A stretch of 64,000 bases of DNA, from the NCBI GenBank assembly GCA_002422025.1, contig DISV01000005.1:51617-115616 (forward strand), written 5' to 3'. Numbering within the stretch: the first letter of the stretch is position 1; every line of letters begins with the position of its first letter. Below, in pieces: positions 5,189 through 43,424 of this stretch. The notes beneath the pieces were generated by a model that worked only from the letters and a program-made list of their open reading frames with translations, did not search any database and was not told where the DNA came from. The translations under genes were made by a program, and so were the position numbers. The DNA is from Patescibacteria group bacterium UBA6201. Lineage in GTDB: Bacteria > Patescibacteriota > Minisyncoccia > Phycocordibacterales > UBA918.

Positions 5189-5192
5189 ACCT

Positions 5193-5966: not shown

Positions 5967-6020
5967 AAGCTTCATCTACACTTTATCTTTACTTGTTATG
6001 GTTGTATTATTTAATTTATA

Positions 6021-7275: not shown

Positions 7276-7287
7276 CCTCTAGTCTAA

Positions 7288-10463: not shown

Positions 10464-10509
10464 AGTTGTTTAGTAAAAGAGAGTGAGTAAAAAAGTTATT
10501 GTCCTTTCT

Positions 10510-11592: not shown

Positions 11593-11728
11593 GTTAGTAG
11601 ACATTATATATGTATATGTCTGGAGAAGTAAAATTTTAATACCTCCATATTTAATATTGGCTTTGGTCAAAAGTGACACTTGCGGTATAGTTTCTCCAAT
11701 ATGAATCCCGTTAGAGTTTAATAGTGTT

Positions 11729-11989
11729 ATGTACTACGTTTATATACTAAAAAGCGAAACTTCAGGACTTTGGTATACTGGCACAACCAATGATTTACGG
11801 AAGCGTTTAAGTCTACATAACAAGAAGCAATCGACTTGGACCAAAGGAGGAGTTCCGTGGACATTGATTTATTACGAAGCGAGTTTATCAAAGGAAGACG
11901 CTTTTGCTCGAGAAATTTACCTCAAGACAGGTATGGGTAAGAGGTACCTCAAGAATAGACTCAAATGCTTCCTAACTCTAACGGGATGA
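11729..11989 (+). CDS. GIY-YIG nuclease superfamily protein (UPF0213/YhbQ-like)
   Basis: 86 aa. [30 protein letters not shown] is a GIY-YIG motif. Confidence 0.7.
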
Positions 11990-14199
11990 AAGACTTACTT
12001 AAATGGGTGATGTACGGGGCGGTGTTTACGGTCCCTTTTGTTTTATTGATAGTTTCTGGGTCCATGTTCTTTCCGTTCATTACGGGAAAAAACTTCGCTT
12101 TTAGAATTTTGGTGGAGATTGGCTTTACTGCTTGGGTGCTTTTGATGTTGATTGATCAGGTGTATCGTCCACGTTTGTCATATATATGGTATGCGATACT
12201 CGGTCTCCTGGGCGTAATGTTTATCGCCAATCTCTTTGGTGAATACTCACCAAAGAGTTTTTGGAGTAATTACGAACGTATGGAAGGTTGGGTGACACTA
12301 CTGCACTTCTCAATGTACTTTGTGGTGCTAGGGTCAGCTTTGACTACTGAAAAGCTATGGAATCGCTTTTTTAATGTTGCTTTGGTAGCGGCGGTAATTA
12401 TGTCTCTGTACGCACTTGGGCAGGTATCTGGCGTGACAGAGGTTAGTCAGGGAGCGAATTGGCGAGTAGACGGACGTCTTGGTAACTCCTCATACCTTGG
12501 TGTTTATATGTTGTTCCATATATTCATAGCGGCCTGGTTGCTCATCCGCACCAAGGCGATTAATCTGAAAATTCTTTATGGTGGATTGATCGCGCTTTTT
12601 GTCTTCATTCTGACGCAGACTGGTACTCGTGGTGCGGTGTATGGCTTGATTGGTGGCAGTATTTTGGCCTTCTTGTACTTGGCTATAATGGCGCCAAAGG
12701 GTGCCGCTATTAAAAAATGGGCTCTAGGCGGATTATTGGTTGTGGTTCTTTTGGTCGGGGGGGTGTGGTCTATTCGCGATACGGAGTTTGTGAAGAACAG
12801 TCCAGTCTTAAGTCGTTTTGCCGGCACGACTTTGTCTGAAGGTAATATTCGCTTCATGGTCTGGCAAATGGCTATAGAAGGAGTGAAGGAAAGGCCGATT
12901 TTGGGCTGGGGACAGGAGAATTTCAGCTATGTGTTTAATAAATATTACAATCCGGCACTTTATGGTGCGGAGCCTTGGTATGACCGTACCCACAATATCT
13001 TTTTCGACTGGCTCATTGCTGGTGGGGTATTGGGGTTGTTTGCTTATCTAGCGATACTTATCAGTAGCTTGTGGTATTCGGTACTGCAACCTTTCTATGT
13101 TCGTCTTAAAAATGGTGTTGATACTCATATACATTTCTCTGTATATGAGCAAGCTCTCATTTTGGGTCTTCTGGCAGCGTATATGTTCCATAACTTGTTT
13201 GTCTTTGACAACCTGGCCAGCTGGATTTTCTACGCGGTAGTATTGGCGCTCATTCATAGTCGAGTCAGTTACGAATGGAAATCTATTTCAAGTATTACCT
13301 TTAGTCAGGCTGTCTGGCACAACGTTGTCTTGCCAAGTGGGGCTGTTGTTCTTTTGCTCACGATTTACTTTGTGAACGTCCCATCAATGTTGGCTGCACA
13401 AAATATTATTGATGCTTATCGGGCCACTGGAGTCTCTCCCAAACTAGAGATGTTTGAAAAGGCTTTTAACCGAGGTGGTTTCGCTGACCAAGAAATATTT
13501 GAACAAACCGCTCAGGTTGGCGGGCAACTCTATAGCAATCCTGCTGCCAGTGAGTCTGATAAGGAGGCTATAGTAAATTTGTTTACTAGGTTGGAAGGGG
13601 AGATGATGGCAAAGAAGCCAAATGACGCACGGCTCTACATTGTCGCTAGCAACTTCTATCGAACGATGGGGGATTTGAATTTGACAATGTCGTCTCTCGA
13701 TAAGGCTGAAAAGCTTTCTCCAAACAAACAAGCAATAAAAGAAGAACAAGGTGTCGTATATATGATGGCGGGACGAAGTGAGGAAGCAATTGAACGTTTT
13801 CAAACCGCCTACGAATTAGATGAAAGAAACGAAAGAGGGAAAGTACGTCTAGCGACCGCATATCTTTTTGCTGACAATCAAGCAGAATTTGAGAAGTTGA
13901 TAAACTTAGAGACCCTACATGAAAATCCCGGCCTTCTATCTGTAGTGATAAACGAACCATTGCTCTTGTCGGTTGCTTATCAGAAGAAAGATTACCCTCT
14001 CTTAGAATTCATTACTAAAGAGAGAATCCAAGTGGCACCATCGGAGCAGGGCCTTCGGACTAATTTGGCAGCTTTGTATTTTGAACAAGGTAAGTATGGT
14101 GATGCTAGAACAGTGATAGAAAAGGCTATTGCAGAAATACCAGCCTTCAAGGCTGAAGGTGAAGCGCTATTAGAAGAAATAGATTCGGCCCAAAACTAG
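11986..14199 (+). CDS. O-antigen ligase (Wzy_C)-like polytopic membrane protein with C-terminal TPR-like region
   Basis: Track ORF 11965..14199. The likely start is MKDLL at 11986, where ATGA overlaps the GIY-YIG stop. Multi-TM N-terminal half carries a Wzy_C-like GTRGAVYGLIGG motif. The C-terminal ~250 aa is soluble and TPR-like. Confidence 0.65.
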   Translation: MKDLLKWVMYGAVFTVPFVLLIVSGSMFFPFITGKNFAFRILVEIGFTAWVLLMLIDQVYRPRLSYIWYAILGLLGVMFIANLFGEYSPKSFWSNYERMEGWVTLLHFSMYFVVLGSALTTEKLWNRFFNVALVAAVIMSLYALGQVSGVTEVSQGANWRVDGRLGNSSYLGVYMLFHIFIAAWLLIRTKAINLKILYGGLIALFVFILTQTGTRGAVYGLIGGSILAFLYLAIMAPKGAAIKKWALGGLLVVVLLVGGVWSIRDTEFVKNSPVLSRFAGTTLSEGNIRFMVWQMAIEGVKERPILGWGQENFSYVFNKYYNPALYGAEPWYDRTHNIFFDWLIAGGVLGLFAYLAILISSLWYSVLQPFYVRLKNGVDTHIHFSVYEQALILGLLAAYMFHNLFVFDNLASWIFYAVVLALIHSRVSYEWKSISSITFSQAVWHNVVLPSGAVVLLLTIYFVNVPSMLAAQNIIDAYRATGVSPKLEMFEKAFNRGGFADQEIFEQTAQVGGQLYSNPAASESDKEAIVNLFTRLEGEMMAKKPNDARLYIVASNFYRTMGDLNLTMSSLDKAEKLSPNKQAIKEEQGVVYMMAGRSEEAIERFQTAYELDERNERGKVRLATAYLFADNQAEFEKLINLETLHENPGLLSVVINEPLLLSVAYQKKDYPLLEFITKERIQVAPSEQGLRTNLAALYFEQGKYGDARTVIEKAIAEIPAFKAEGEALLEEIDSAQN

Positions 14200-15512: not shown

Positions 15513-15674
15513 ATGCCAGCAAAAAAGAAGAAGGCACGTAAGGTAGCAAAGAAAGCTACTAAGAAAGTAGCCAAGAAGAAGACTGCAAAGAAAGCTGCAA
15601 AGAAAGCTACTAAGAAAGTAGCCAAGAAGAAGACTGCAAAGAAAGCTGCGAAGAAGACCGCTCGTCGAAAATAA
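15513..15674 (+). CDS. Small lysine/alanine-rich basic protein (histone H1-like / Hc1-like nucleoid protein), 53 aa
   Basis: MPAKKKKARKVAKKATKKVAKKKTAKKAAKKATKKVAKKKTAKKAAKKTARRK. Not in the ORF track because it is under 60 aa. It has its own AT-rich upstream region and a strong terminator. The antisense 94-aa track ORF (15446..15730) translates to FFAAFF junk. Confidence 0.6.
   Translation: MPAKKKKARKVAKKATKKVAKKKTAKKAAKKATKKVAKKKTAKKAAKKTARRK
15551..15652 (+). repeat. 51-nt perfect tandem duplication (x2) inside the basic-protein gene
   Basis: Unit gaaagctactaagaaagtagccaagaagaagactgcaaagaaagctgc appears at 15551 and again at 15602. It encodes KATKKVAKKKTAKKAAK twice. Confidence 0.85.
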
Positions 15675-19002: not shown

Positions 19003-19680
19003 CTAGTTGCCGTCATCCTCATCCTCATCCTCGTCCTCGTCAGACTCAACGCTATCTACATCCTCATCCTCATCCTCGTCCTCGTCAGACTCAACGCTAT
19101 CTACATCTTCCTCCTCATCTTCCGCTACCTGGCTACGTAATTTTTGTAATTGTTCAATAGCTAATTTCAGTAGTGGACTATTGTCACCACGCTCAGCGTC
19201 AATTGTTTGTAGACGTTCGATAATTGCATCAAATAAAGCGGTGCGTTCACCGCTACGCATTTCTCTAGCGGCTTCACTGATCGTATTTCCTGGACCCGAA
19301 TTTAAGGAATCTTCATCGTCGTCATCAGTTGGCTGACCGGCTTTTTCACGAAGTTCTTTAATTCGTTCCTCTGCTTGTCTTCGTAGTTCTTCAAGTTGTT
19401 CTTTGTTTTTGGTACGGAGTTCTTCAACCTCAAGTTTTTGTTGGTCACTTAATTCATTAATAGCATCTTTGCTTTTTTCACGCATCTCATTAATGCGAGC
19501 TCGAGCTTCTTCTATACGTTGTTTAATTTGCTCTTTTTGTTCGCTACTTAGGTTGGAGCCGACAGTATCGGGTATAGTTTGGGCATTGGCAGTTGATACA
19601 AATGCTAATGCAAAAAAAACAGATAATATAAACCCGATTAATATGGTGGTTGGCAGTTTGTGGGCGGCGGTTTTTAACAT
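19003..19680 (-). CDS. Secreted coiled-coil protein with acidic C-terminal repeats (hypothetical)
   Basis: Track ORF 19003..19836. The probable start is MLKTAAHKL at rc 19680, which gives a signal peptide ending ...STANA/QT. It has a long heptad-like central region (EQIKQRIEEARARINEMREKSKD...) and a tail DVDSVESDEDEDEDED x2. Confidence 0.55.
   Translation of the reverse strand: MLKTAAHKLPTTILIGFILSVFFALAFVSTANAQTIPDTVGSNLSSEQKEQIKQRIEEARARINEMREKSKDAINELSDQQKLEVEELRTKNKEQLEELRRQAEERIKELREKAGQPTDDDDEDSLNSGPGNTISEAAREMRSGERTALFDAIIERLQTIDAERGDNSPLLKLAIEQLQKLRSQVAEDEEEDVDSVESDEDEDEDEDVDSVESDEDEDEDEDDGN
19016..19110 (-). repeat. 45-nt tandem repeat (x2 plus partial) encoding DVDSVESDEDEDEDE
   Basis: cctcatcctcatcctcgtcctcgtcagactcaacgctatctacat repeated head-to-tail at 19016 and 19061. 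Confidence 0.8.
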
Positions 19681-19887
19681 GTTGTATATTTTTGGTAAAT
19701 TAAATAAGAATAGAGGCCCGACCCAAACAGGGACGTGCCTCCAATGCGTATATAGTAACCCGTATTTGTCTAGACCGAATTGATGATTGTGGATAGTGGT
19801 TATTTGACCGAAGCTTCTAATGAAGAAATTCGCCATTTGTGTAAGTCATATACAGCTAAGCTAATTTGTGTTATTAATACGGCCACT

Positions 19888-22466: not shown

Positions 22467-23228
22467 TTGATGTTATATAATTCGGTTATGGAGGAAATCT
22501 CGGTTAACGGAGAAAATTACGTAAAAGCTAGTATCTTAGCCAAGAATTTTGGCTACACTCCGGATTATATCGGACAACTTTGTCGTGCTGGGCAAGTGAA
22601 GTGCACACTTGTTGGACGTAGTTGGTATGTGAATGAAGAGTCGCTTCGAGAACATCGCAAAGGACGTTATCGAAGTAGTTCTGCTAAATCCAAAGAATAC
22701 TTACGTAAGGCAGTAGAAGATCAGTTATTAGTACCGGTTCAGATGCGAACTACTTCAACGGTAAGATATGAACCAGATGAGAAGGAACTTTTTCCGGCAC
22801 TGAATAAAACAGAAGAAACTCATCCTATTGCTTCTGAAGATGATAGTTTAGACTTAAAGGTGGCTATAAATAAGCCTCTATTGGTTGAATCGCTGTCAGA
22901 TAGGCCTGGTGTACCTGTAGCGAGGAAGACTTTAACTAGACATCCTGCACCCGTTTTGCGTACGATTCCTGCTTTACGCCCGATTATAAGCCCCGTACAA
23001 CCCAACTTAACTGCGAAGTCACAAAAAAGTGGCTTCATTCCGAGTCGGGTATCTACAACGGGTACCTTTGCAATATTTTTAGGAATTTTACTAGTTGAGT
23101 CGGTGTTGCTTTTTGGAGTTCTGGGATTAGAGAAGCGCCTCGTTTTGGCCGACAGTAATCAGGCAATGGTTTTGTATGGTTTTGATGCTGATAAGGCACT
23201 TGACTCGATAAAATTCTTCCAAAAATAG
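22467..23228 (+). CDS. Membrane-anchored protein with N-terminal excisionase-type HTH (HTH_17-like) and C-terminal TM helix; hypothetical
   Basis: 253 aa. aa 18-62 (YVKASILAKNFGYTPDYIGQLCRAGQVKCTLVGRSWYVNEESL) fit the HTH_17 pattern. The middle is Pro-rich and the only TM is near the C-terminus (TFAIFLGILLVESVLLFGVLGL). Confidence 0.5.
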   Translation: MMLYNSVMEEISVNGENYVKASILAKNFGYTPDYIGQLCRAGQVKCTLVGRSWYVNEESLREHRKGRYRSSSAKSKEYLRKAVEDQLLVPVQMRTTSTVRYEPDEKELFPALNKTEETHPIASEDDSLDLKVAINKPLLVESLSDRPGVPVARKTLTRHPAPVLRTIPALRPIISPVQPNLTAKSQKSGFIPSRVSTTGTFAIFLGILLVESVLLFGVLGLEKRLVLADSNQAMVLYGFDADKALDSIKFFQK

Positions 23229-23299: not shown

Positions 23300-23330
23300 A
23301 AGATATCCCCATTTTGGGGATATTTTTTAA
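23300..23330 (+). terminator. Rho-independent terminator between the 253-aa gene and the giant gene
   Basis: gatatcccc-atttt-ggggatat followed by TTTTT. Confidence 0.65.
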
Positions 23331-23363: not shown

Positions 23364-26300
23364 GTGATGTCAGATAGTACAGAGCCTTCAAACGTAGACA
23401 CTTCAAAGTCGACAAAATTCCTTTCCGTCAAAGAGGCGGCCACTGTCTCTTCTTATACTACTGCTCACGTAACAAGGCTCGCTCAAAAGGGATTAATCAC
23501 AGCTGTGCGTGATGGTCGACAATGGCTGATTGATCCAATTTCTCTCCAAAAATTTGTCTGGGATACAGAAGAAAAAAAGAAAGTAAGAAAGGAACAATTA
23601 CGAAAGGAAAGAGTGGAGGAATTGCATTTATCTAGTACTGGACAAACTCTGGAGGATTCCGATGAGGAGTTTTCAATATTTGATGTTAGAACCGCCGTTG
23701 TTTCCGCCGTCTTCACCACTTGTGTAGCATTGTTGTTTTCTCTGGGGAGTGTTTATGATCAAAATGAACAAATCTTTGCTGGTAGTACGGTGGTGTCAGG
23801 AGTAGAGAGGTTATCCTATGATTTTAAGGATAGAGTGCTTCCTCGAACTCGCGACCTTTCAGCCACCACTCTCTTATCTGCTCCGATTGCAACATATTCA
23901 GGAAAAGTATTGGAATCGTTGTGGTGCGATTTGAAATTACTCTGGTACAAAAATGATAGCTGTGGTGCTCCAGCAATCGAGTACGCTATTCTGCCAATCA
24001 TAAATAACCGTGATGCTGACCCCGAGACTAATGTCACAGTTAACAATACTTACATCACTAATCCTGTAGAGAGAGAAGTCGTAGAGCGAGAAATTGTCCG
24101 TGAAGTTTTTGTCCAAGATGGTCAACTTTCTTTTGCTTCATACATAACTCGTACTGAGTACGACAATCAGGTTGATGCCATAATGCGCTCTATCGAAAAT
24201 ATCGACACGAGCGGAGGTGGTGGAGGTACTAGTAATGTTGCCTCTTTAGAGGATCTTTCTGATGTTGCAGCAATGACTGAAAGTACTGGTGATTTGTTAA
24301 TTTGGACCGGTTCGACCTGGAGTAATATTGCCACCTCTTCTTTGGGGATTTCCGGAGGTAGTGGCGCAGTCGATTCGGTCAATGGTCAGACTGGTGTAGT
24401 GGTACTCGATACTGGGGATGTTTCGGAAAATGGCAATCTATACTTCACCAACGCTCGCGCTCGCGAATCCCTTTCATCATCTGCCACCGGTCTTTCGTAC
24501 GCAACTTCAACCGGTGTTTTTAGCTTAACAGCCGGATACACCATTCCACTCACTGCCTCAACGACTGAATGGAGTAATACTACTAACCTCGTCACTGCCG
24601 GCAGCGCTTCTTGGGACGCTGCTGCAGCTAGTACCACCGCTCTTACTCCTAGCTACCTCCGTGGTCTCTTTTCTAACTCTGCCACCGGCCTCACCTATGA
24701 CTCTGGCACTGGCGCGACTTCACTCACATCTGGCTACACTATCCCACTTTTAGCTTCAACTACTGAGTGGGTTACTGCGTATGGGTGGGGGGATCACTCA
24801 CTGCAAAACTACATCCAGCAAAACGACAACGTAGTATTTGGTAATGCCACTACCACTAGCCTGGTGGTTAGTAACAACATCACAACTTCCTTAAACGATG
24901 GTTGTGTGGAAGTTGCTGGTGGCATACTTACCTCTACCGGTTCTAACTGTGGGATTGGTAGTGGGGGAATCACTAGCCTAAATGGCCTCACTACATCTTC
25001 TCAGTCGTTTGCCACTTCCACCTCAGGAGGTCTTGATCTCAGTATCACTTCTAGTAGTGGTGTACACACTTTCACTGCAGGTCTTTCAGCCGGCTACACC
25101 ATCCCACTTTCAGCTTCCACCACCGAGTGGGCCAACACTCGCAATATCGTCAACGCCTCTTCAACCCTCTGGGACACTGCATACAGCTGGGGAGATCACA
25201 GTACCGCCGGCTACCTAACAACCATCGCTTCTTCCACCATTCGCAACATGTTCTCTAACACTGCCACTGGTCTCACTTATGACTCTGGTACTGGCATCAC
25301 TTCATTGACAGCCGGCTATACTATCCCACTTACTGCCTCAACAACTGAGTGGTCAACCACATACGGATGGGGAGATCACAGTATCGCTGGCTACTTAACC
25401 GAAGTCGCCACTACCACCGTACGTAGCATGTTCTCAACTGGTACTGGTCTTTCATATTCAACTACCACTGGAGAGTTTATCAACACCGGTGTCCTTTCGC
25501 TCGGTGGACTAACCGGTGCTGTGGCTACCTCATCTCTCCATGTCTCCACCTCTACATATGCCTTTACGTCCGGTACCTCATCAATCGCTCTTTCACTCGA
25601 TGGATTTAATTCAACAGACTATCTAACGCTATCCGCTTGGTATGCCACCACCACCGACGCTCTTGATGAAGGTCTAAACAATCTATATTTCACCAACGCT
25701 CGCGCTCGTGAATCACTTTCATCATCTGCCACCGGTCTTTCATACGCAACTTCAACCGGTGCTTTTAGCTTAACGGCCGGCTATACCATTCCACTCACTG
25801 CCTCTACGACTGAATGGAGTAACACTGCTAACCTCGTCACTGCTGGCAGTGCCTCTTGGGACGCTGCTGCAGCTAGTACCACTGCTCTCACTCCAGCATA
25901 TCTGCGTGGTCTCTTTTCAAACTCTGCAACCGGTCTTACTTATGACTCTGGTACTGGCGCGACTTCACTTACAGCTGGCTACACTATCCCACTCACAGCT
26001 TCAACGACTGAGTGGGCTACTGCGTATGGGTGGGGGGATCACAGTGCGGTGGGATATCTCGTCTCTGGTGATATCGACACTTCCTCCGAACTACTCACAA
26101 TTGTTTCAGACGAAACCGGCACTGGCTCATTAGTGTTCAACGCTTCGCCAACTTTCACTGGCAACACCACTTTGGCAAATGCCTCTACCACCAACCTCAC
26201 CGTTTCAGGTAACAGCTATCTCGGTACGGTTGCCTCCGGTACCTGGAACGGTACCGACATCGACATCTCTGACTACACCAATCTCTCAGTCACTGCCACT

Positions 26301-29300
26301 GGCCTCTCCCTGTCCGGTGATGCTGTAGCACTCACTGCCGGCTATATTATCCCACTTTCAGCTTCAACAACTGAGTGGTCAACCGCGTATGGGTGGGGAG
26401 ATCACAGTATCGCTGGTTACTTAACCAACATTACTGGTGAATCACTCGAAGACCTGACTGATGTTGCCACAATGACCAAGTCTACTGGTGATCTTCTTTC
26501 ATGGAATGGTTCAAGTTGGACGAATGTGGCTACGTCATCTCTTGGCTTCAATGACCACGACAGTGTCACTCTTGCTGGTGAAAATTATCTATCACTAGCA
26601 ACTCAACAAATCACGGCCAACGCCATCAACCCAGATAACCTAGCATCCGCCGACTTCGGTGACTTCACCTGCAACGGTACTACTTGTTCGTTTGATACTG
26701 ACTCTGTCAGTGACAACGAGATTGATTACACAACAGTCACTCTCAATGACCTAACTTTCGATGTAGGCAACGTTTCGAAGACCGAGTTTGGTTACCTAGA
26801 TGGAGTCACTTCTGCTATACAAACGCAACTTGATTCAAAACTTTCAACTACCACTGCTGCCTCAACTTACTTAACAATCAACAATAATTTATCTGACCTT
26901 GCCTCCACCACTGTGGCCCGCACTAATCTCGGACTTGGTACCGTTGCTCTACTTAACAGTATTGATATCTCTGATAATACCAATCTCTCTGTATCAGCGA
27001 CCGGCCTCTCCCTGTCCGGTGATGCTGTGGCACTCACTGCCGGCTACACCATCCCACTTTCAGCCTCAACCACTGAGTGGTCAACTGCATACGGATGGGG
27101 AGACCACAGTATCGCTGGCTATCTAACCAATATTACTGGTGAATCCTTCTACGACTTAGTTGACACTCAAAGTTCATACACTGCCAACCGTGTTTTATAT
27201 CAAGGCGGAGGAGGTGTGACTGACTCAGCCAACCTCACCTTCGACGGTTCACTCTTCAGTGTGATTGGTACCGCTTCATCTACAAATCTTTTTACTACCA
27301 ATGCCACTACCACCAATATCACTGCTTCAGGTCACGCTACTCTTGCTACAGCATCATCTACTAACTTCACTGTCTCAGGTAACTCATATATAGGTACGGT
27401 TCTTGGTGGTGCATGGCAGGGAAGCGCAATCGGTGTGCAGTATGGCGGTACCGGAGCAAGTACATTCACTGCCGGAGAAATTCTTGTAGGCAACGGTACT
27501 GGAGCCATCACTTCAACCTCAACCGCCAACCTCAAGGCCACTCTTGGACTTAACAATGTAGAAAACACTGCACTCTCTACTTGGGCTGGTTCATCTAACA
27601 TTACTACCCTTGGTACTATCGTTTCTGGTGTTTGGAATGGAACTACTATAGATGTAGCTCATGGCGGCACCGGAGCTACTACTCTCACCGGTCTCCTTTT
27701 AGGTAATGGCACTGGTGCATTCACTGCTACCACCACATTATCTTCTTCTTATATAGAAGATGCTTATGTTCTCAATACTGGCGACTCTATCTCTGGTAAC
27801 CTAACTTTCTCTGGATTAGCCGCTAATATTGTTCTAGGTTCTAACTGGCTTTCAGGCGATGGAGGAGACGAGGGGCTGTTTGTTGATAGTGTCGGTAAAG
27901 TCGGTATCGGGACGGCTTCTCCCACCGCAGCATTATCAATTACTAATGATGGAACATCTGATCTTGATGTCTTGCTTGATAACGGCACAGTTCAAGGAGT
28001 ATTTGAGTTACAATCAAACAGTGTTGCAAGGTTGGGTACCATAACGAATCATTCATTCGAATTCGTAACCAATAACTCTACTCGTTTTAAGGTAACTAAT
28101 GCCGGGAATATTGGTATAGGCTCCACCTCTCCATCATCTAAACTCACTGTTCAAGGTGACACCTGGATTGGTGGAAACATTACTGCCACTGGCACTTTAA
28201 ATATCACTGATCACTCTACTCTAACTACTGCCTCCACCACCAACCTCACTGTCTCAGGTAACAGCTATCTCGGTACAGTTGCCTCCGGTACCTGGAATGG
28301 TACCGACATCGACATTAGCGACTACACCAACCTCTCTGTATCAGCGACCGGCCTTGAACTTTCGGGTGATGCTATTGCACTCACAGCTGGCTACACTATC
28401 CCACTCACTGCTTCAACTACTGCCTGGAACACAGCCTATAGTTGGGGTGACCACAGCATAGCTGGATATCTAACCAATATTACTGGTGAATCACTTGAAG
28501 ACCTGACCGACGTAGCAGCAATGACTAAGTCTACCGGTGACCTTCTTTCATGGAATGGTTCAAGTTGGACGAATGTAGCGACTTCAAGCTTAGGGATTAC
28601 TGGCACTTCCGACGGCGTCGCTTCTTCAAGTGTGGCGTTTTCGGTCCACAAGAATGGGACGAACCAGACAGTGACAGCAAATACATTTACCTTGCTCACT
28701 TGGTCCACCGAAGTCTTCGACACCAACAACAACTTCGACCTCACCACTGAACGCTTCACGCCAACGGTGGCGGGGAAGTATATTGCGACCGTTGCGTCGT
28801 TTTGTAATGACAGTACAACAAATTGCCAAGTAGCAATATATAAAAATGGTGTCTTGTACTCAAAAAATGTGAATGTTGATCCGAATAATACAGGATCTAT
28901 GGTAACTACTATTGTAGACATGAACGGTACCACTGATTATCTAGAAGCCTATGGATATGATGGTGGAGGAACTACTATCTCCGGCGCTGCAGAGGTCACC
29001 TACTTCTCCGGCGCCCTCATTGCTCCAGCTAACGGCCTCGCCGGCGGTTGGTCTAACGACGGCACGCAGTCATACCTCGCCGACTACACCGACCTCGTAG
29101 CTATCGGTACTTCTACTGCCGCCGCAAAGCTCGATGTGTGGGGAAGTGCTGGTTCAACTGACATACTCGGAATTTCTTCAAGTACTGGTTCACGACTCCT
29201 CACTGTGACAAGTAACGGTAATGTGGGGATTGGAACCACCACTCCTTCGTCGAAACTCTCCGTCTACGGTGACGTTCTGCTCGAAGGCTCAAGCCGTTAT

Positions 29301-32300
29301 CTAAACTTCGGTAGTACTGCAGGTACATCAGGCTACGGTATTCGCGACAACGCCGGAACCATAGAGTTTAAAAACTCTGGTGGCTCTTGGACCGGTATTG
29401 GCACGGGCACTGGCAGTACTGGTTCTAGTAGTGTGGCGTTTTCGGTACATAAGAATAGCACTGCGCAGACGGTGACTTCAGCTACTGTCACGCTTCTTAC
29501 TTGGTCTACCGAACTCTTCGACACCAACAACAACTTCGACCTCACCACTGAACGCTTCACGCCAACGGTGGCAGGGAAATATACAGTTACACTTTCAGCT
29601 TTTTGTGATAATGGTACAACAGGTTGTGCGGTCTACATCTATAAAAATAACGTACTTGTAAACCAAGGCTATACTGGGTCAAACGTTGCTACCGGTGTTG
29701 CAGCTGTTACGGCCATTATAGATATGAACGGTACGACGGATTATCTAGAAGCTTATGTATTTAATAATAATGGTACTACCATTAATGGTGGTAAACATGT
29801 CACCTACTTCTCCGGCGCCCTCATTGCTCCAGCTAACGGCCTCGCCGGCGGTTGGTCTAACGACGGCACGCAGTCATACCTCGCTGACTACACCGACCTC
29901 GTTGCTATCGGTACCACTACCGCAGCCGCTAAGCTTGATGTCTGGGGAAGTGCTGGTTCAACTGACATCCTTGGTATTTCATCCTCAACAGGTTCACGTT
30001 TGTTGACACTCACTAGTGGAGGCAACCTCGGTCTCGGCACTACTACTCCGTCATCTAAACTCTCCATCCAAGGAACTGGTAATCTCCTCTCACTCTTCGA
30101 CACTGCCGGCAACTCTATCTTCAATATTGCTTCTGCCACTACATCTACCTCTACTCTAGCTACCAACCTCGCAATCACCGGCAACCTCTCACTTTCTGGT
30201 TCACTCTACGATAGTACTAGCTCTGCTGGTTCTTCAGGTATGGTGTTACAAAGTACTGGTAGTGGAACTCAATGGGTAGCCACTTCATCACTTGGTATTA
30301 CTGGTGGTACTGATGGTGTCGCTTCTTCAAGTGTGGCGTTTAGTGTGCATAAGAATGGAACAAATCAGACTGTGACAAGCAATGTAGAAACTTTGGTGAC
30401 TTGGTCCACAGAAGATTTTGACACAAATAACAACTTCGACCTCTCAACAGAACGTTTTACTCCTACTATTGCAGGTAAATATATAGTCACAGTCGCTGTA
30501 CGGTGCGATTCGGCGACCACCTTTTGTCAGGCACGTCTGAGAAAGAACGGAAGTGGTATATCAACTCGATATGAATATACAGCCGGAGGTGGCACTCCAC
30601 CTACTACAGTTACAGCTACTGTGGATATGAATGGTACGACGGATTACTTGGATGTTATGGCGACAAATAGTGGGGGAACCACAATAAACGGTGGTGCGGA
30701 ATACACATACTTCTCCGGCGCCCTCATCGCTCCAGCTAACGGCCTCGCCGGCGGTTGGTCAAATGACGGTACTCAGTCATACCTCGCCGACTATACCGAC
30801 CTCGTTGCCATCGGTACCACTACCGCTACTGCTAAACTCGACATCTGGGGAAGTGCTGGTTCAACTGACATTCTTGGTATCTCATCCAGTACTGGTTCAC
30901 GACTTCTCACAGTGACGAGTAACGGTAATTTGGGAATTGGAACCTCTTCACCAACATACAAACTTGATGTAGCTGGAGGATATATAAACGTAGATGGTAA
31001 CAGTGGTGGATATAAAATAAGTGGTAACACCATTCTTCAAGCTTCGAGTACTAACTTCAGTACCTTGGTTGGTAATGGAGCTGGTACAGTACTGCAAGCC
31101 ACCGGTCTATACAACACCGCTGTTGGTTATCAGTCATTAAATGTAGCGACTTCTTCTACTTACAACACCGCTGTCGGTTATCAATCGCTCTTCTCTGATA
31201 CTTCTGGTGGTAGCAACACAGCTACTGGTTACAAGGCTTTGTACTCAAACACCACTGGTGGTTTTAACACCGCACTGGGACGAGAATCTCTCTATTCCAA
31301 CACCACTGGTGTCGCCAACACTGCTTATGGTTACAAATCTCTCTATTCCAACACCACTGGTAGTTACAACGTGGCTAGTGCGTATCAAGCTCTACAGTCC
31401 AACACCACTGGTAGTTACAACATGGCCTTGGGACGTCAGGCTCTCTACTCCAACACCTCTGGACAAGGTAATACCGCGGTAGGGTTTAGAACTGGTTACG
31501 GTGACGGGTCTACATTAAATCAACAATCAGTAGTGGATGAGTACATAACATTGATTGGTTATCAGGCTTCTCGTGATGCTTCAGTGGCTTCGACCACCTC
31601 TCTCACTAACAGCGTTGCGATTGGTTACAACGCTAGATTCTTAGCTAGCAACCAAGTAGTGCTCGGTAATGATTCGGTTACTTCCACTTTGTTGAAAGGT
31701 AATGTCAGTATCGGTACCACCACCAACGCTGTAGCTGGTGGCACAGCAGCCTTCTTAAACATTGATCGTTCAAGTGCGGGGGCGTTCGCCGTGGGTACAT
31801 ATATAAATCTCACTACAAGTGCTTCTCATTTTGGTTTTGCTAACCCTAACGGTTTGGTTGGTACTATTAACACTTCTGCTTCCGCCACCACCTACAACAC
31901 CACTTCCGACCGTCGTACCAAGGAAAATATTACCGAAACCGTACTCGGACTCGATGCCTTAATGCAGCTACCAATACGTGACTTCTCATTCATTAAAGAT
32001 ACTACCCACGCTACAACCTCCGGCTTCATCGCGCAGGAGTTATATGAAATATTCCCTTGGGCAGTCTCAACCAACGGTGACAATGGTATTGACCCACTTA
32101 CCGGCACCAGTACTCCTTGGTCAGTGGACTATGGTCGAGTGACTCCACTCATTGCTCGGGCAGTACAGGAATTGAATTTGAAACTAGAAGATTTGGCCAC
32201 CACTAGCTTGTATGCCGATTTGGAAGCTGATTCATTTACTAAGAGTTTCTTCGATAAACTCATCGCTTGGTTTGCTGACGCTACCAATGGTATTGAGAAC

Positions 32301-32726
32301 TTCTTTGCGAATCGGGTAAGCACTAAGGAGTTATGTGTTGGGGACGGCAGTGGGGCGGAGACCTGTATCACTAAGAGTCAACTAGATTCGCTATTACAAA
32401 GTGCGGCGGTAGGTAGTTCAAACAGTGGGGGAGAAGGAGGTGGTTCTTCCACTCCAGAACCCCTTCCTCCAGTAGACACCACTACTCCTGAACCAACCAC
32501 TAACGATACTGCTGCAACTACGACTACAGACGTAACTACCGACACTACCACAACTACAGACGGAACCACAGACACACCATCACCCGACAATGGAACGATA
32601 ACCGACACTGAACCAGTTCCAGAACCTACGCCTGAACCAGCTCCCGATCCAGAACCAGAGTCAGCTCCGGAACCGGCGCCAGAACCTACTCCAGAACCTA
32701 CTCCAACCCCAGCTCCAACGGAATAA
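23364..32726 (+). CDS. Giant (3120 aa) membrane-anchored repetitive surface fibre: N-terminal cytoplasmic HTH_17-like domain, one TM helix, repetitive ectodomain, tail-fibre-like module with C-terminal S74 intramolecular chaperone domain, Pro/Thr/Glu-rich tail
   Basis: It is a single uninterrupted 9363-nt ORF. The frame-1 GTG is at 23364 and the ATG at 23367. The HTH is LSVKEAATVSSYTTAHVTRLAQKGLITAVRDGRQWLIDPISL. The TM is AVVSAVFTTCVALLFSLGSVY (~aa 109-129). Repeats and the C-terminal module are listed separately. Confidence 0.85.
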   Translation: MMSDSTEPSNVDTSKSTKFLSVKEAATVSSYTTAHVTRLAQKGLITAVRDGRQWLIDPISLQKFVWDTEEKKKVRKEQLRKERVEELHLSSTGQTLEDSDEEFSIFDVRTAVVSAVFTTCVALLFSLGSVYDQNEQIFAGSTVVSGVERLSYDFKDRVLPRTRDLSATTLLSAPIATYSGKVLESLWCDLKLLWYKNDSCGAPAIEYAILPIINNRDADPETNVTVNNTYITNPVEREVVEREIVREVFVQDGQLSFASYITRTEYDNQVDAIMRSIENIDTSGGGGGTSNVASLEDLSDVAAMTESTGDLLIWTGSTWSNIATSSLGISGGSGAVDSVNGQTGVVVLDTGDVSENGNLYFTNARARESLSSSATGLSYATSTGVFSLTAGYTIPLTASTTEWSNTTNLVTAGSASWDAAAASTTALTPSYLRGLFSNSATGLTYDSGTGATSLTSGYTIPLLASTTEWVTAYGWGDHSLQNYIQQNDNVVFGNATTTSLVVSNNITTSLNDGCVEVAGGILTSTGSNCGIGSGGITSLNGLTTSSQSFATSTSGGLDLSITSSSGVHTFTAGLSAGYTIPLSASTTEWANTRNIVNASSTLWDTAYSWGDHSTAGYLTTIASSTIRNMFSNTATGLTYDSGTGITSLTAGYTIPLTASTTEWSTTYGWGDHSIAGYLTEVATTTVRSMFSTGTGLSYSTTTGEFINTGVLSLGGLTGAVATSSLHVSTSTYAFTSGTSSIALSLDGFNSTDYLTLSAWYATTTDALDEGLNNLYFTNARARESLSSSATGLSYATSTGAFSLTAGYTIPLTASTTEWSNTANLVTAGSASWDAAAASTTALTPAYLRGLFSNSATGLTYDSGTGATSLTAGYTIPLTASTTEWATAYGWGDHSAVGYLVSGDIDTSSELLTIVSDETGTGSLVFNASPTFTGNTTLANASTTNLTVSGNSYLGTVASGTWNGTDIDISDYTNLSVTATGLSLSGDAVALTAGYIIPLSASTTEWSTAYGWGDHSIAGYLTNITGESLEDLTDVATMTKSTGDLLSWNGSSWTNVATSSLGFNDHDSVTLAGENYLSLATQQITANAINPDNLASADFGDFTCNGTTCSFDTDSVSDNEIDYTTVTLNDLTFDVGNVSKTEFGYLDGVTSAIQTQLDSKLSTTTAASTYLTINNNLSDLASTTVARTNLGLGTVALLNSIDISDNTNLSVSATGLSLSGDAVALTAGYTIPLSASTTEWSTAYGWGDHSIAGYLTNITGESFYDLVDTQSSYTANRVLYQGGGGVTDSANLTFDGSLFSVIGTASSTNLFTTNATTTNITASGHATLATASSTNFTVSGNSYIGTVLGGAWQGSAIGVQYGGTGASTFTAGEILVGNGTGAITSTSTANLKATLGLNNVENTALSTWAGSSNITTLGTIVSGVWNGTTIDVAHGGTGATTLTGLLLGNGTGAFTATTTLSSSYIEDAYVLNTGDSISGNLTFSGLAANIVLGSNWLSGDGGDEGLFVDSVGKVGIGTASPTAALSITNDGTSDLDVLLDNGTVQGVFELQSNSVARLGTITNHSFEFVTNNSTRFKVTNAGNIGIGSTSPSSKLTVQGDTWIGGNITATGTLNITDHSTLTTASTTNLTVSGNSYLGTVASGTWNGTDIDISDYTNLSVSATGLELSGDAIALTAGYTIPLTASTTAWNTAYSWGDHSIAGYLTNITGESLEDLTDVAAMTKSTGDLLSWNGSSWTNVATSSLGITGTSDGVASSSVAFSVHKNGTNQTVTANTFTLLTWSTEVFDTNNNFDLTTERFTPTVAGKYIATVASFCNDSTTNCQVAIYKNGVLYSKNVNVDPNNTGSMVTTIVDMNGTTDYLEAYGYDGGGTTISGAAEVTYFSGALIAPANGLAGGWSNDGTQSYLADYTDLVAIGTSTAAAKLDVWGSAGSTDILGISSSTGSRLLTVTSNGNVGIGTTTPSSKLSVYGDVLLEGSSRYLNFGSTAGTSGYGIRDNAGTIEFKNSGGSWTGIGTGTGSTGSSSVAFSVHKNSTAQTVTSATVTLLTWSTELFDTNNNFDLTTERFTPTVAGKYTVTLSAFCDNGTTGCAVYIYKNNVLVNQGYTGSNVATGVAAVTAIIDMNGTTDYLEAYVFNNNGTTINGGKHVTYFSGALIAPANGLAGGWSNDGTQSYLADYTDLVAIGTTTAAAKLDVWGSAGSTDILGISSSTGSRLLTLTSGGNLGLGTTTPSSKLSIQGTGNLLSLFDTAGNSIFNIASATTSTSTLATNLAITGNLSLSGSLYDSTSSAGSSGMVLQSTGSGTQWVATSSLGITGGTDGVASSSVAFSVHKNGTNQTVTSNVETLVTWSTEDFDTNNNFDLSTERFTPTIAGKYIVTVAVRCDSATTFCQARLRKNGSGISTRYEYTAGGGTPPTTVTATVDMNGTTDYLDVMATNSGGTTINGGAEYTYFSGALIAPANGLAGGWSNDGTQSYLADYTDLVAIGTTTATAKLDIWGSAGSTDILGISSSTGSRLLTVTSNGNLGIGTSSPTYKLDVAGGYINVDGNSGGYKISGNTILQASSTNFSTLVGNGAGTVLQATGLYNTAVGYQSLNVATSSTYNTAVGYQSLFSDTSGGSNTATGYKALYSNTTGGFNTALGRESLYSNTTGVANTAYGYKSLYSNTTGSYNVASAYQALQSNTTGSYNMALGRQALYSNTSGQGNTAVGFRTGYGDGSTLNQQSVVDEYITLIGYQASRDASVASTTSLTNSVAIGYNARFLASNQVVLGNDSVTSTLLKGNVSIGTTTNAVAGGTAAFLNIDRSSAGAFAVGTYINLTTSASHFGFANPNGLVGTINTSASATTYNTTSDRRTKENITETVLGLDALMQLPIRDFSFIKDTTHATTSGFIAQELYEIFPWAVSTNGDNGIDPLTGTSTPWSVDYGRVTPLIARAVQELNLKLEDLATTSLYADLEADSFTKSFFDKLIAWFADATNGIENFFANRVSTKELCVGDGSGAETCITKSQLDSLLQSAAVGSSNSGGEGGGSSTPEPLPPVDTTTPEPTTNDTAATTTTDVTTDTTTTTDGTTDTPSPDNGTITDTEPVPEPTPEPAPDPEPESAPEPAPEPTPEPTPTPAPTE
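24436..28600 (+). repeat. Intragenic array of ~10 copies of a 40-65-aa motif (..SATGLTYDSGTGATSLTAGYTIPLTASTTEW.TAYGWGDHS..)
   Basis: The DNA motif ggctacac(c/t)atcccact(c/t) recurs near 24533, 24732, 25093, 25313, 25775, 25975, 26340, 27043 and 28385. It includes a ~370-nt segment duplicated at ~90% nt identity (24436-24800 vs 25680-26045). There are also three copies of a ~100-aa module GTWNGTDIDISDYTNLSV.ATGL.LSGDA.ALTAGY.IPL.ASTT.W.TAY.WGDHSIAGYLTNITGES (26230, 26960, 28280). Confidence 0.85.
28585..30965 (+). repeat. Three tandem ~810-900-nt (~270-300 aa) intragenic repeat units
   Basis: Each unit starts SLGITG.SDGVASSSVAFSVHKNGTNQTVT (28585, ~29395, 30291). Each contains ..FDTNNNFDLTTERFTPTVAGKY..DMNGTTDYLEAY..YFSGALIAPANGLAGGWSNDGTQSYLADYTDLVAIGT and ends ..SNGN(V/L)GIGTTTPSSKLSV. 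Several 100-nt blocks are almost identical at the nt level (e.g. 29010-29110, 29815-29915, 30720-30820). Confidence 0.85.
31110..31480 (+). repeat. Tandem 48-51-nt repeats encoding ~8 copies of a 16-17-aa N-T-A-x-G-Y-x-(S/A)-L-Y-S-N-T-T-G motif (tail-fibre / YadA-head-like beta-solenoid repeat)
   Basis: YNTAVGYQSLNVATSST / YNTAVGYQSLFSDTSGGS / NTATGYKALYSNTTGGF / NTALGRESLYSNTTGVA / NTAYGYKSLYSNTTGSY / NVASAYQALQSNTTGSY / NMALGRQALYSNTSGQG. Confidence 0.8.
31900..32200 (+). other. Peptidase S74 / C-terminal intramolecular chaperone (auto-cleaving) domain of phage tail-fibre / tail-spike type
   Basis: TSDRRTKENITETVLGLDALMQLPIRDFSFIKD....SGFIAQELYEIFPWAVS....VDYGRVTPLIARAVQELNLKLEDL. This matches the SD(R/K)xxKxNI...LxxLxxLxV..Y.yk......hiGfIAQEv..v.P consensus of endosialidase / T5 L-shaped-fibre chaperone domains. 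Confidence 0.7.
32430..32723 (+). repeat. Low-complexity Pro/Thr/Glu/Ala-rich C-terminal tail (TPEP/PEPT repeats)
   Basis: ...TPEPLPPVDTTTPEPTTNDTAATTTTDVTTDTTTTTDGTTDT...EPVPEPTPEPAPDPEPESAPEPAPEPTPEPTPTPAPTE*. Confidence 0.8.
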
Positions 32727-32748: not shown

Positions 32749-33306
32749 ATGGAACTAGATAAGGCGATAGAGGCATTGCTTTTTTATAAAGCTGAGCCAA
32801 TAAAAAAGGCGGTTTTAATGAAAACTTTAGAAGTGGGGGAGGGGGAGCTTGTCGCTGCCTTGGAAGTGCTCAAAGAGCGCTTGCAAGGTGGTGCAACGAC
32901 ACTCATCACTACTGAAGAGGACGTGTCTTTAGTAGTCGGTCCACAATTTGACGATTTGGTCGAGAGTATTCGTAAAGACGAAATGAAGCGTGGTATTGGT
33001 CGGGCCGGTGCCGAGACCTTGGCCATAGTGATGTATCGCGGTCCAATTGGTCGCGTTGAGATTGATCGTATTCGTGGTGTTAACTCTTCATATATATTAC
33101 GTAACCTGGAGATGCGTGGGTTGGTGGAGAGGCGAGTAGGTAAGAGGCAGAACGAATTCGTCATTACAACTGAGCTACTTCGTCATTTGGGGATACGAGA
33201 AAAAACTGAAATGCCAGATTATGCTAAGGTACTAGACGCGCTTGAAGCCTTCGAAAACAGTGCATTTCCAAACGACGAATCTCTGCGTCAGACTGCAGAA
33301 AAATAA
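32749..33306 (+). CDS. scpB: Segregation and condensation protein B
   Basis: 185 aa. Two winged-helix repeats (IEALLFYKAEPI...; ETLAIVMYRGPIGRVEIDRIRGVNSSYILRNLEMRGLV). Confidence 0.85.
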   Translation: MELDKAIEALLFYKAEPIKKAVLMKTLEVGEGELVAALEVLKERLQGGATTLITTEEDVSLVVGPQFDDLVESIRKDEMKRGIGRAGAETLAIVMYRGPIGRVEIDRIRGVNSSYILRNLEMRGLVERRVGKRQNEFVITTELLRHLGIREKTEMPDYAKVLDALEAFENSAFPNDESLRQTAEK

Positions 33307-33530
33307 GTTTAACGTATATTGAATACGTCGCACTTATTTTTCCTTGTCTGACTTGACCTTCATTCATTTTCAAAAGCACCAAGAAGAGGATATTATTGAA
33401 AACGACGAATCTCTGCGTCAGGCTACGGAAAATTAATCTCAATGTATGAGATATACGCCTCGTTTAATTTTCCTTACCTTCCTTGACCTTTATTCGTTTT
33501 GAAAATCACCACAGAGGAAGTATAAAAAAT
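33271..33530 (+). repeat. 128/132-bp tandem duplication spanning the last 36 nt of scpB and the downstream terminator-like hairpin
   Basis: Unit 1 is 33271-33398 and unit 2 is 33399-33530. Both begin aacgacgaatctctgcgtcag(a/g)ct(g/a)c(a/g)gaaaa(a/t)taa. Both contain an A-run/hairpin/T-run element, then ttccttg.cttgacctt.attc.ttttcaaaa.cacca.agagga. Confidence 0.8.
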
Positions 33531-42437: not shown

Positions 42438-43424
42438 ATGCGATTACGTAAGAGCGATGACCCGATCACTTACTATCTAGTCCCCTTTCTAGAATATTGT
42501 GAAATTGAAAAAGGCCTTTCTGATAATACTCAAAGAAATTACGAACAATACCTTAAGTTGTTCATACATTGGCTTAATGTCGCCAATTTGAATGATTTAA
42601 AGCCTCATGAGATAACCCCGGAGCATATTTGGGATTATCGACTGTTTTTATCACGCAAATACAAAAGTCGCCGTAATTTGCCCCTGTCCAAGAAATCTCA
42701 GAACTACTACTTAATAGCCCTACGCTCACTACTCGATTTTTTTGCCGAAAAGGACCTAGAGTCACTACCGTCAGCCAAAATTAAGCTTGCCAAACAAAAA
42801 GATGACCATACGGTCGCGTTCTTGGATGTTAATGACATAGAAAAGATGGTTAAGGTACCTAATGTCAGTAAGCCAGGTGGTTTACGCGACCGAGCCATTA
42901 TGGAATTATTTTTTTCGTCTGGTTTGCGTATCGCAGAGCTTTGCAAACTCGATCTTGATCAGATGTCGATGCTAAAAGATAATGATGAAACTCGTACGTA
43001 TGAGTTGTCAGTCGTTGGAAAAGGTCGGCATGTTCGCACAATATTTATCTCACCCCGAGCAGCTGGCTGGCTCCGTGAATACATAAAAACAAGACGTGAC
43101 GTCTGGAAGCCTCTTTTTATCAATTATCGAACCCGTCCAAATCCTAATGGTATTGAGACTGAAAGACGTCTCACTCCCCGTTCGATTCAAAGTATGATAG
43201 CTAAGTCGGCGATTATGGCCGGGTTATCAAAAAAAGTCACTCCACACACCCTTCGCCACACCTTTGCTACCGATCTTTTATCCCGTGGTGCTGACTTGCG
43301 TAGCGTCCAGGAGCTTTTAGGTCACCAAAACGTCTCCACGACTCAGATATATACTCACGTCACCAACAAACAGTTACGGGACATCCACGAGCGTTTCCAT
43401 GGTGGTAATGAGAATAAAAAATAA
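42438..43424 (+). CDS. xerC: Tyrosine site-specific recombinase, XerC/XerD family
   Basis: 328 aa. N-terminal SAM-like core-binding domain and C-terminal catalytic domain with R..HxxR..Y (LRHTFATDLLSRGADLRSVQELLGHQNVSTTQIYTHV). Confidence 0.8.
   Translation: MRLRKSDDPITYYLVPFLEYCEIEKGLSDNTQRNYEQYLKLFIHWLNVANLNDLKPHEITPEHIWDYRLFLSRKYKSRRNLPLSKKSQNYYLIALRSLLDFFAEKDLESLPSAKIKLAKQKDDHTVAFLDVNDIEKMVKVPNVSKPGGLRDRAIMELFFSSGLRIAELCKLDLDQMSMLKDNDETRTYELSVVGKGRHVRTIFISPRAAGWLREYIKTRRDVWKPLFINYRTRPNPNGIETERRLTPRSIQSMIAKSAIMAGLSKKVTPHTLRHTFATDLLSRGADLRSVQELLGHQNVSTTQIYTHVTNKQLRDIHERFHGGNENKK

Follow-up and report, generated by a model that had tools for sequence, protein, structure and literature searches.

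The window analysed here, a stretch of 64,000 nt on contig DISV01000005.1 of the Patescibacteria group bacterium UBA6201, carries on its forward strand a giant gene—one uninterrupted open reading frame (ORF) of 9,363 nt (9.36 kb)—with several nested layers of repeats, all of which lie inside it. The repeats are probably for the most part old, diverged modules of a 3,120-residue surface fibre, and the gene would accordingly be a slowly evolving mosaic and not a device for fast switching of length. The predicted fibre would be built of modules of the phage-tail-fibre type, namely a stalk with GYTIPL motifs, three in-line knobs of the C1q/TNF type, β-helix spacers, a solenoid of 17-aa repeats, and a trimerisation chaperone of the Peptidase_S74 (S74) family. 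An initial annotation of the same DNA had taken the repeats for near-identical and for products of recent duplication or ongoing gene conversion, and had predicted from them frequent RecA-mediated expansion, contraction, and reshuffling of an exposed fibre, that is, a substrate for length or antigenic variation. A substrate for length change and a slow modular turnover are what the data document; frequent ongoing length variation is not among the things they document, and where rates of recombination are spoken of below, we infer them.

The similarity between the repeats is found at the nucleotide level and in frame, and not at the amino-acid level only, as judged by self-comparison of the gene with blastn (direct high-scoring segment pairs, HSPs, at E<1e-5). 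Inside the gene, 26 direct HSPs were obtained, the offset being a multiple of three in 26 of 26, and intragenic repeats at the nucleotide level cover 46% of its length, whereas the other 54.6 kb of the window yielded a single HSP—an intergenic 130-nt tandem repeat. The initial annotation was thus correct in placing repeats at these positions, where they occur far above chance, and in assigning the repeat region to an exposed ectodomain, which the domains predict. Its description of near-identical DNA over hundreds of nucleotides does not hold: repeats of ≥80% identity make up 19.5% of the gene and those of ≥90% make up 8.7%, the latter being one 364-nt pair at 91%. Two exact matches, of 86 and 58 nt, stand out in length; all others are ≤35 nt.

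The layers depart from their first description to different extents. About ten motif repeats of 40–65 aa had been listed, and nine copies of GY(T/I)IPL(T/S/L)ASTT(E/A)W are present along with a tenth, degenerate GYTIPL copy near aa 700; their spacing is irregular (66–449 aa), however, and they are dispersed with no regular tandem array. The segment of ~370 nt described as duplicated 1.24 kb apart at ~90% identity was recovered almost unchanged—a 121-codon duplication with two GYTIPL motifs per copy, offset by 1,245 nt and 91.0% identical over 365 columns (95% at the amino-acid level). The GTWNGTDIDISDYTNLSV module, reported as three units of ~100 aa, features two full copies with 83% nucleotide identity over 358 nt, but the remaining copy is partial and comprises 62 aa. 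The three tandem units of ~810–900 nt, each headed by a C1q-type knob, are likewise present with periods of 801 and 900 nt and an exact tract of 86 nt, yet as wholes they are 61–68% identical in nucleotides, which corresponds to 63–69% of the amino acids over the whole unit and 71–78% in the core. These units are mosaics, in which exact matches of 86 and 58 nt stand beside segments of 24–40% identity. Finally, the array given as eight copies of 48–51 nt does have eight copies and a period of 51 nt, but the mean pairwise nucleotide identity is just 55% (range 33–76%), and this 17-aa array is taken to be an old structural repeat.

The synonymous divergence between copies leaves no room for duplications that are recent in the population sense. 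The youngest pair is the 364-nt duplication with a synonymous divergence (dS) of 0.335 (bootstrap 95% confidence interval 0.22–0.52) and a ratio of nonsynonymous to synonymous divergence (dN/dS) of 0.10; 27 of its 35 differences fall on third codon positions. The GTWNGTDIDISDYTNLSV (GTWNG) modules feature a dS of 0.9–1.2 with dN/dS of 0.14–0.25, and the C1q units a dS of 0.97–1.6 with dN/dS of 0.18–0.31. Between the GYTIPL copies, with the two recent pairs left out, the proportion of synonymous differences (pS) is 0.43–0.83, and all layers other than the 364-nt pair have a pS of 0.4–0.8, which is near saturation. As a yardstick, the S74 regions of the window gene and of its nearest relative (protein P0002 on contig L001) stand apart by a dS of 0.60. 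The recent duplication suggested at the outset therefore has no counterpart in these values, where even the youngest pair stands at a dS of 0.34. The comparison of dN/dS between copies, which had been proposed in the same annotation, gave 0.10–0.31 for the 364-nt pair, the GTWNGTDIDISDYTNLSV modules, and the C1q units; all copies are held by purifying selection. As a whole, the initial interpretation is borne out in part. Positive selection in the knob cores cannot be claimed, with pS and the proportion of nonsynonymous differences (pN) both saturated at ~0.6.

The nearest relative features four C1q units and ~3 GYTIPL motifs, compared with three C1q units and nine GYTIPL motifs in the window gene. 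Its protein P0002, 1919 aa as called, is encoded in a different setting, between MurJ and LepA. The homologue on L001 was called as two overlapping ORFs, at 7111–8031 (306 aa) and 8001–13760 (1919 aa); the 306-aa ORF belongs to the same gene and aligns with residues 197–379 of the window protein, and this split points to a frameshift or an assembly error, or possibly to a real split of the gene. Over a unit core of 215 codons, the first window unit (W1) is 82% identical in nucleotides to L001 unit A2 (pS 0.41) and the second (W2) is 76% identical to A3 (pS 0.42), whereas within the window gene W1 and W2 share 74%, W1 and W3 69%, and the remaining pair 67%. Because W1 and W2 are closer to A2 and A3 than to units of their own gene, the knob duplication is taken to be older than the split from the L001 lineage. 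The units do not appear to have been homogenised as wholes, and wholesale concerted evolution is not what their sequences suggest. Along each unit, the nearest neighbour changes. In the left flank of the knob's variable core, unit 1 and unit 2 are 97% identical; in the core itself, unit 1 is A2-like with 79% against 59% to unit 2, and unit 2 is also nearest to A2 with 64%. The right flanks (~100 nt) of units 1–3 are mutual nearest neighbours with 86–94% nucleotide identity, and in the distal stalk unit 1 is nearest to unit 3 (78%), whereas unit 2 is 97% identical to A3. The pS between W1 and W2 is 0–0.08 in the two flanking tracts, compared with ~0.6 elsewhere.

This change of neighbour is impossible for a single tree, and it bears on the view that the repeats are purely structural relics—ancient duplications kept alike by protein constraint and codon preference, with no recombination since. 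The low dN/dS and the near-saturated synonymous divergence of most layers agree with that view, as does the fact that the tracts of highest identity encode the most conserved peptides. As an account of all the repeats it is nonetheless improbable: in a Sawyer-type permutation test on polymorphic sites, W1 and W2 agree at 29 consecutive polymorphic sites (global p ~0.0025), and the right flanks of the three units are mutually nearest, whereas the cores are not. Between the two genomes, W2 and A3 share a run of 45 sites (p<0.0005 for all sites and p=0.0015 for silent sites) and an exact tract of 100 nt, although the orthologous S74 regions of both genomes are only 83.5% identical; this shared tract suggests recombination between lineages inside the gene family. 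The gene conversion proposed in the initial annotation is thus supported for at least one tract within the gene and by the clustering of right flanks, but not as a wholesale process, given that W1 is nearer to A2; as read from the alignments, conversion appears to be visible only in the short conserved flanks.

Several points weigh against the reading of old modules with patchy conversion and are best taken together. On silent sites alone, the W1–W2 signal is weaker, with a pairwise p of 0.025 and a global p of 0.22. The block of the right flank that encodes ALIAPANGLAGGW is unusually GC-rich, and pS in this flank is lowered in seven of seven units of both genomes (mean 0.22–0.26 vs ~0.6)—which also speaks for the relic view—and because it is lowered in all seven, part of the flank identity may reflect nucleotide or codon constraint instead of conversion. 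Conversion inside a single genome is not a full explanation of the lowering. L001 is the only close relative available and is non-syntenic, and the 'orthology' of its units is drawn from similarity alone. Short-read assembly may collapse identical tandem copies, and identity and copy number are thereby perhaps underestimated. On the side of the protein, the AlphaFold2 model of a GYTIPL double repeat is unusable with a predicted local distance difference test (pLDDT) score of 36, and that the fibre is trimeric, surface-exposed, and cleaved at its S74 domain is a prediction.

A contingency device of the 'Periscope' type would call for RecA-mediated unequal crossing-over that often resizes and reshuffles the fibre within populations. 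RecA-dependent exchange in Escherichia coli has a minimum of ~25–30 bp, and the exact tracts of 86 and 58 nt lie above it; a crossover between the 86-nt tracts would gain or lose exactly 804 nt (268 codons), that is, one knob unit, and the uniformly in-frame offsets of the repeats would keep such products readable. The conversion signal and the module numbers, which vary among related genes in between-genus and between-species comparisons only, point the same way, and Periscope proteins demonstrate that identical repeats drive length variation (PMC8201768). Such a device is still unlikely here. The tandem units fall below the ≥80% identity of the Periscope screen over the whole unit as well as in the core, little of the gene lies in repeats of ≥90% identity, and dS runs from 0.34 to >1. 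Just two identical tracts exceed 35 nt, and the frequent RecA-mediated expansion and contraction predicted at first is not supported. The units have also kept separate identities across the lineage split, and none of the collections searched holds variant alleles: an exact protein look-up of the window protein and of its database counterpart P0001 returned no length variants or alleles, a cluster look-up returned no extra members, and the conserved 30-nt block had 0 exact DNA matches in metagenome contigs. A protein-guided metagenome scan found 80 loci, none above 62% identity save for a 47-residue fragment at 85% (L069), and no population variants; conspecific sequences did not come to light in any of these searches. 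The notion of antigenic variation does not suit the genome of an environmental member of the Patescibacteria, for which receptor specificity and avoidance of phages would seem apter.

The favoured explanation of slow mosaic evolution can be put as a sequence of events. The nested repeats would be paralogous modules, born of segmental duplications that kept the reading frame and date from very different times: ancient for the 17-aa and GYTIPL repeats, intermediate for the C1q units, whose duplication would precede the split from the nearest known relative, and youngest for the 121-codon segment, at approximately half the age of that split. Purifying selection would preserve each copy, and the variable cores of the knobs would be kept distinct, presumably each with its own binding specificity. 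Homologous recombination would act in a patchy manner—within the gene, short conversion tracts would keep the conserved flanks around the knob cores alike, and at least one tract may have been exchanged with another lineage or have been retained in both. The outcome would be a slow birth-and-death evolution of module number and order, like that of phage tail-fibre genes. The substrate for length change (the 86-nt tracts, offset by 804 nt) exists but is small.

The predicted protein features a helix-turn-helix (HTH)-like domain, a basic coil, and a single transmembrane (TM) helix at its N-terminus, which does not start with a signal-peptide-like sequence. The GYTIPL region that follows has no Pfam family and no sequence match in the Protein Data Bank (PDB). 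Each of the three tandem units spans the profile of the C1q family PF00386 over 1–127 of 127 positions. In the whole protein, unit 3 scores 36.3 bits against a cut-off of 23.7 bits; searched separately, units 1, 2, and 3 score 16.9, 21.4, and 23.9 bits, and units 1 and 2 alone thus fall below the cut-off. The AlphaFold2 model of unit 1 (monomer) has a pLDDT of 73, with values of ~82–97 for residues 1–135 except in one lower loop, and the knob is modelled as a ten-stranded jelly-roll of the C1q/TNF fold. The top Foldseek match of this model is C1QL2 (4qpy; template modelling score 0.78), and the central spike knob of the staphylococcal phage phi812 (9eul) is also among the best matches; 152 PDB matches reach E≤0.001, and the top 50 listed are nearly all chains of the C1q/TNF superfamily. 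For the knob module (FDTNNNF ... DMNGTTDY), viral contigs of IMG/VR (L115–L194) contain at least 450 relatives with 38–52% identity, which marks it, by sequence, as a common domain of the phage receptor-binding type. The spacer behind the knob matches Bdellovibrio Bd2133 (8ond) by phmmer with E 1.9e-5, aligned on the GNVGIGTTTPSSKL loops. The chaperone domain scores 40.7 bits for PF13884 (cut-off 22 bits; aa 2848–2901; profile 1–57 of 58) and retains the Ser-Lys dyad as S2848-D-R-R-T-K2853, in keeping with the SDxxxK motif as defined for S74 domains (PMC10769870). The low-complexity tail behind it would be released together with the chaperone upon S74 cleavage. The giant fibre is probably trimeric, going by the families involved, and the same families are what S74 cleavage, the membrane topology, and a role in host-cell binding are presumably to be read from. 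The coordinates of all these features are collected in the table.

Table. Features of the giant gene and its immediate surroundings, in window coordinates.
Feature	Position	Strand	Details and evidence
Hairpin ATATCCCC-loop-GGGGATAT followed by a T-run	23303-23328	+	3' of the upstream gene; read by eye, missed by a consensus scan
Giant gene	23364-32726	+	3120 aa; predicted single-pass membrane-anchored, tail-fibre-like surface fibre; ORF and translation
HTH_17-like domain, presumed cytoplasmic	23418-23561 (aa 19-66)	+	Pfam E 1.2e-4, 22.7 bits, below the 27-bit cut-off
TM helix, putative signal-anchor	23685-23756 (aa ~108-131)	+	Sole hydrophobic segment in a Kyte-Doolittle scan
Copy A of the 364-nt duplication	24434-24797	+	Two GYTIPL motifs
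Stalk with nine dispersed GYTIPL motif repeats	24468-28523	+	Repeat family and motif search; motifs at nt 24534, 24732, 25092, 25314, 25779, 25977, 26340, 27042, and 28389
Copy B of the 364-nt duplication	25679-26042	+	1,245 nt 3' of copy A
GTWNGTDIDISDYTNLSV module, full copy 1	26180-26537	+	
GTWNGTDIDISDYTNLSV module, partial copy	26961-27145	+	62 aa; 81-86% nucleotide identity
GTWNGTDIDISDYTNLSV module, full copy 3	28229-28586	+	
Unit 1, predicted C1q/TNF-fold knob (first ~135 aa) and β-helix spacer with GNVGIGTTTPSSKL capping loops	28623-29423	+	Pfam, AlphaFold2, Foldseek, Bd2133 match
58-nt exact match	28714-28771 vs 29515-29572	+	Left conserved flank of the knob's variable core
86-nt exact match	28995-29080 vs 29799-29884	+	Right conserved flank (encodes ALIAPANGLAGGW); best gene-conversion candidate
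Unit 2, predicted C1q knob and longer spacer	29424-30323	+	Pfam C1q, unit comparison
100-nt exact match to L001 unit A3 (11239-11338)	29941-30040	+	Candidate inter-lineage mosaic tract
Unit 3, predicted C1q knob and spacer	30324-31100	+	Above the Pfam cut-off in the whole protein
Eight 51-nt/17-aa repeats (NTAxGYxSLYSNTTGxx)	31113-31520	+	Period confirmed
Peptidase_S74 chaperone domain	31905-32066	+	PF13884, SDxxxK motif
Pro/Thr/Glu-rich low-complexity C-terminal tail	32421-32723	+	30-nt and 12-nt micro-repeats

The N-terminus allows for a further reading, in which the giant fibre would be a membrane-tethered one-component sensor—similar to ToxR or CadC—that reports host contact to the DNA or to a partner. 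The combination of HTH, coil, and TM helix resembles a membrane-tethered transcription factor, although the HTH score lies below the Pfam cut-off. The region (23364–23800) aligns across five positional orthologues, including those at loci L011, L016, L021, and L024, whose N-termini are conserved and whose ectodomains have almost nothing in common; it is also found in at least 700 representative proteins, mostly HTH-TM proteins of ~250 aa and a few giants. The candidate partner could be the small HTH-TM protein encoded directly upstream, and the knobs with their conserved flanks and variable cores could then form an exchange system, the cores of which are swapped among units, lineages, and receptor-binding proteins of phages. 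The sensor reading as a whole is quite unlikely. The upstream 253-aa protein (22467–23228, + strand) has an HTH-like N-terminus with a weak HTH_17 match and a TM helix near its C-terminus; its N-terminus and that of the giant protein are 28% identical (E 0.006), and it is kept at the same position in syntenic genomes.

An assembly artefact—repeats that are chimeric or collapsed in a metagenome assembly—is very unlikely. The genome is indeed a metagenome assembly, and giant ORFs at related loci are fragmented (e.g. L024, L016, and L031), several of the positional giant genes being split by frameshifts. The ORF in the window is intact over its 9,363 nt with all repeats in frame, however, and its copies have diverged enough (61–91% identity, exact tracts ≤86 nt) for an unambiguous assembly. 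P0001, the 3119-aa database protein obtained from the ATG at 23367 instead of the GTG at 23364, is on record from a contig of 370 kb, and L001, an independent assembly, has the same module types.

The giant gene sits at a locus that is conserved across Paceibacteria. Upstream lie the genes for SecA, a holin-like membrane protein, Obg, GatB, and the 253-aa protein, and downstream those for ScpB, a D-Ala-D-Ala carboxypeptidase (DacA), MraY, FtsW, MurG, and GltX. Eight further Patescibacteria genomes, which carry the labels Paceibacterota, Nomurabacteria, or Minisyncoccia, have the same upstream order up to and including the giant gene, and their SecA is 58–76% identical to that of the window. 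The giant genes at this position have lengths of ~2,900 to >5,000 aa and a wholly different ectodomain content, with no GYTIPL motifs and 0–1 C1q units. The GC content at third codon positions (GC3) of the window gene is 0.41, compared with 0.35–0.43 for its neighbours. Because of the housekeeping neighbours, the conserved position, and the matching GC3, the gene is regarded as native and chromosomal and not as part of a prophage. A hairpin and T-run behind the upstream gene suggest that the giant gene probably has a promoter of its own.

The idea that the gene belongs to a prophage, is a tail-fibre gene of recent transfer, or is diversified by a diversity-generating retroelement (DGR) or a shufflon is largely refuted, although the S74 domain, the abundance of knob relatives in viral contigs, and a XerC/D-type tyrosine recombinase at 42438–43424 (+ strand) could be cited for it: the context, synteny, and GC3 just given speak against a prophage or genomic island, no reverse-transcriptase match was obtained in the 39 ORFs scanned (~14 ORFs of ≥120 aa lay outside the scan), and mismatches between repeats show no adenine specificity, most being C/T transitions in the third position of codons. 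Invertible segments were sought as well, and just three weak inverted pairs (18–23 nt, 78–89% complementary) were found, none of them bracketing a module. No link to the repeats was found for the tyrosine recombinase, nor for the recombination-associated protein RmuC at 60330–61382 (− strand).

Some further elements of the window lie apart from the repeat layers. An antisense ORF within the giant gene (28436–28933, 165 aa) is regarded as spurious. The intergenic 130-nt tandem repeat (33270–33511; 1.9 copies, 77% matches) is situated between the ScpB and carboxypeptidase genes and adjoins a 20-nt hairpin at 33298–33342. Upstream of SecA, a short in-frame-looking tandem array with a 51-nt period encodes a Lys/Ala-rich sequence (15546–15650), and an array with a 45-nt period (19014–19110) lies within the minus-strand ORF 19003–19836, which has no Pfam match. 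A large surface-glycan cluster of lower GC content (0.33–0.40) occupies 578–14199, upstream of the block from SecA to the giant gene, and features glycosyltransferases, a DegT aminotransferase, a GDP-mannose dehydratase, epimerases, a Wzx-like flippase, and a Wzy_C/TPR protein resembling O-antigen ligases.

Patescibacteria depend on other cells. The giant fibre, with three different knobs on one stalk, is a concrete candidate for a host-recognition organelle made of the parts that phages use for binding bacteria, and it parallels the fibres of Bdellovibrio in an unrelated epibiotic lineage. Under the preferred reading of slow mosaic evolution, such genes would be expected to change by slow modular duplication, by patchy conversion confined to flanks, and by occasional exchange between lineages, with no fast on/off switch of length; this bears on their use as strain markers, on the trust placed in their assemblies, and on the prediction of host range from knob cores. 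In the literature searched, nothing specific was found on a Patescibacteria fibre of this type; predators of the candidate phyla radiation are described in general statements as carrying giant membrane proteins (PMC8080830).

Among known systems, Periscope proteins (SasG, Rib/alpha C, and Sgo_0707 are examples; Whelan et al. 2021) have been screened for by tandem repeats of >50 aa with ≥80% identity (PMC8201768). They share with the giant protein the location on the surface, a stalk of repeated modules, and in-frame DNA repeats that could change its length. Their repeats are tandem, however, with identities of ≥80% (often ~100%) and numbers that vary between strains (PMC8201768), whereas the tandem units here range from 63% to 78% and the copies of ≥85% (95% and 85% of the amino acids) are dispersed. 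The cassette adhesins, namely pilE/pilS of Neisseria and MgpB/C–MgPar of Mycoplasma genitalium (PMC2169797), feature variable segments flanked by conserved sequence at the recombination ends, and the C1q cores between identical tracts of 58 and 86 nt have a similar layout. In contrast to these systems, the rest of the window holds no silent donor cassettes, every 'cassette' belongs to the one protein that is expressed, and the giant gene gave no evidence of ongoing exchange. BclA of Bacillus, a fibre of the cell or spore surface, carries a trimeric C1q/TNF jelly-roll on a repetitive, length-variable stalk, which is made of collagen-like GXX repeats and bears one C-terminal knob; the giant protein has no collagen repeats, features three internal knobs, and ends with an S74 chaperone.

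The fibres and tailspikes of phages with S74 domains, such as the K1F endosialidase and the L-shaped fibre of T5, have parts in common with the giant protein: the S74 domain scores above its cut-off, the knob occurs in hundreds of viral contigs, its fold matches a knob of a phage central spike, and phage tail fibres also evolve as mosaics segment by segment. Unlike them, the giant gene lies outside any phage or prophage at a housekeeping locus, and its predicted product is membrane-anchored and 3–5 times longer than is typical.

A further likeness is to the mosaic adhesive trimers (MATs) of Bdellovibrio (Bd2133, Bd3182, and Bd2439; Caulton et al. 2024, PMC10769870), of which Bd2133 is a solved fibre and characterised trimer that predatory bacteria use on their prey. 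MATs are likewise cell-encoded fibres of the phage-tail-fibre kind with a mosaic architecture, in organisms that live on other cells. Their β-helix spacers carry GN(L/V)G(I/L)GTxxPxxKL capping loops, which the giant protein matches directly in Bd2133, the family includes adhesive domains of the TNF/C1q type, and the C-terminus is an S74 domain with the SDxxxK motif. MATs comprise ~1,000 aa with one tip domain, whereas the giant protein of 3,120 aa has a long GYTIPL stalk and three internal C1q knobs in addition to its S74 terminus. All 21 MATs start with a signal peptide followed by a conserved, β-rich N-terminal domain of ~130 aa (PMC10769870), with which, going by its description, the HTH-like domain and TM anchor of the giant protein contrast. 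The envelopes also differ, being that of Patescibacteria on the one side and of a diderm predator on the other. Taken together, the giant gene would encode a variant of such MAT-like, tail-fibre-like surface fibres whose HTH-TM anchor is unusual and which strings three C1q knobs in line, at a locus that is conserved among Patescibacteria.

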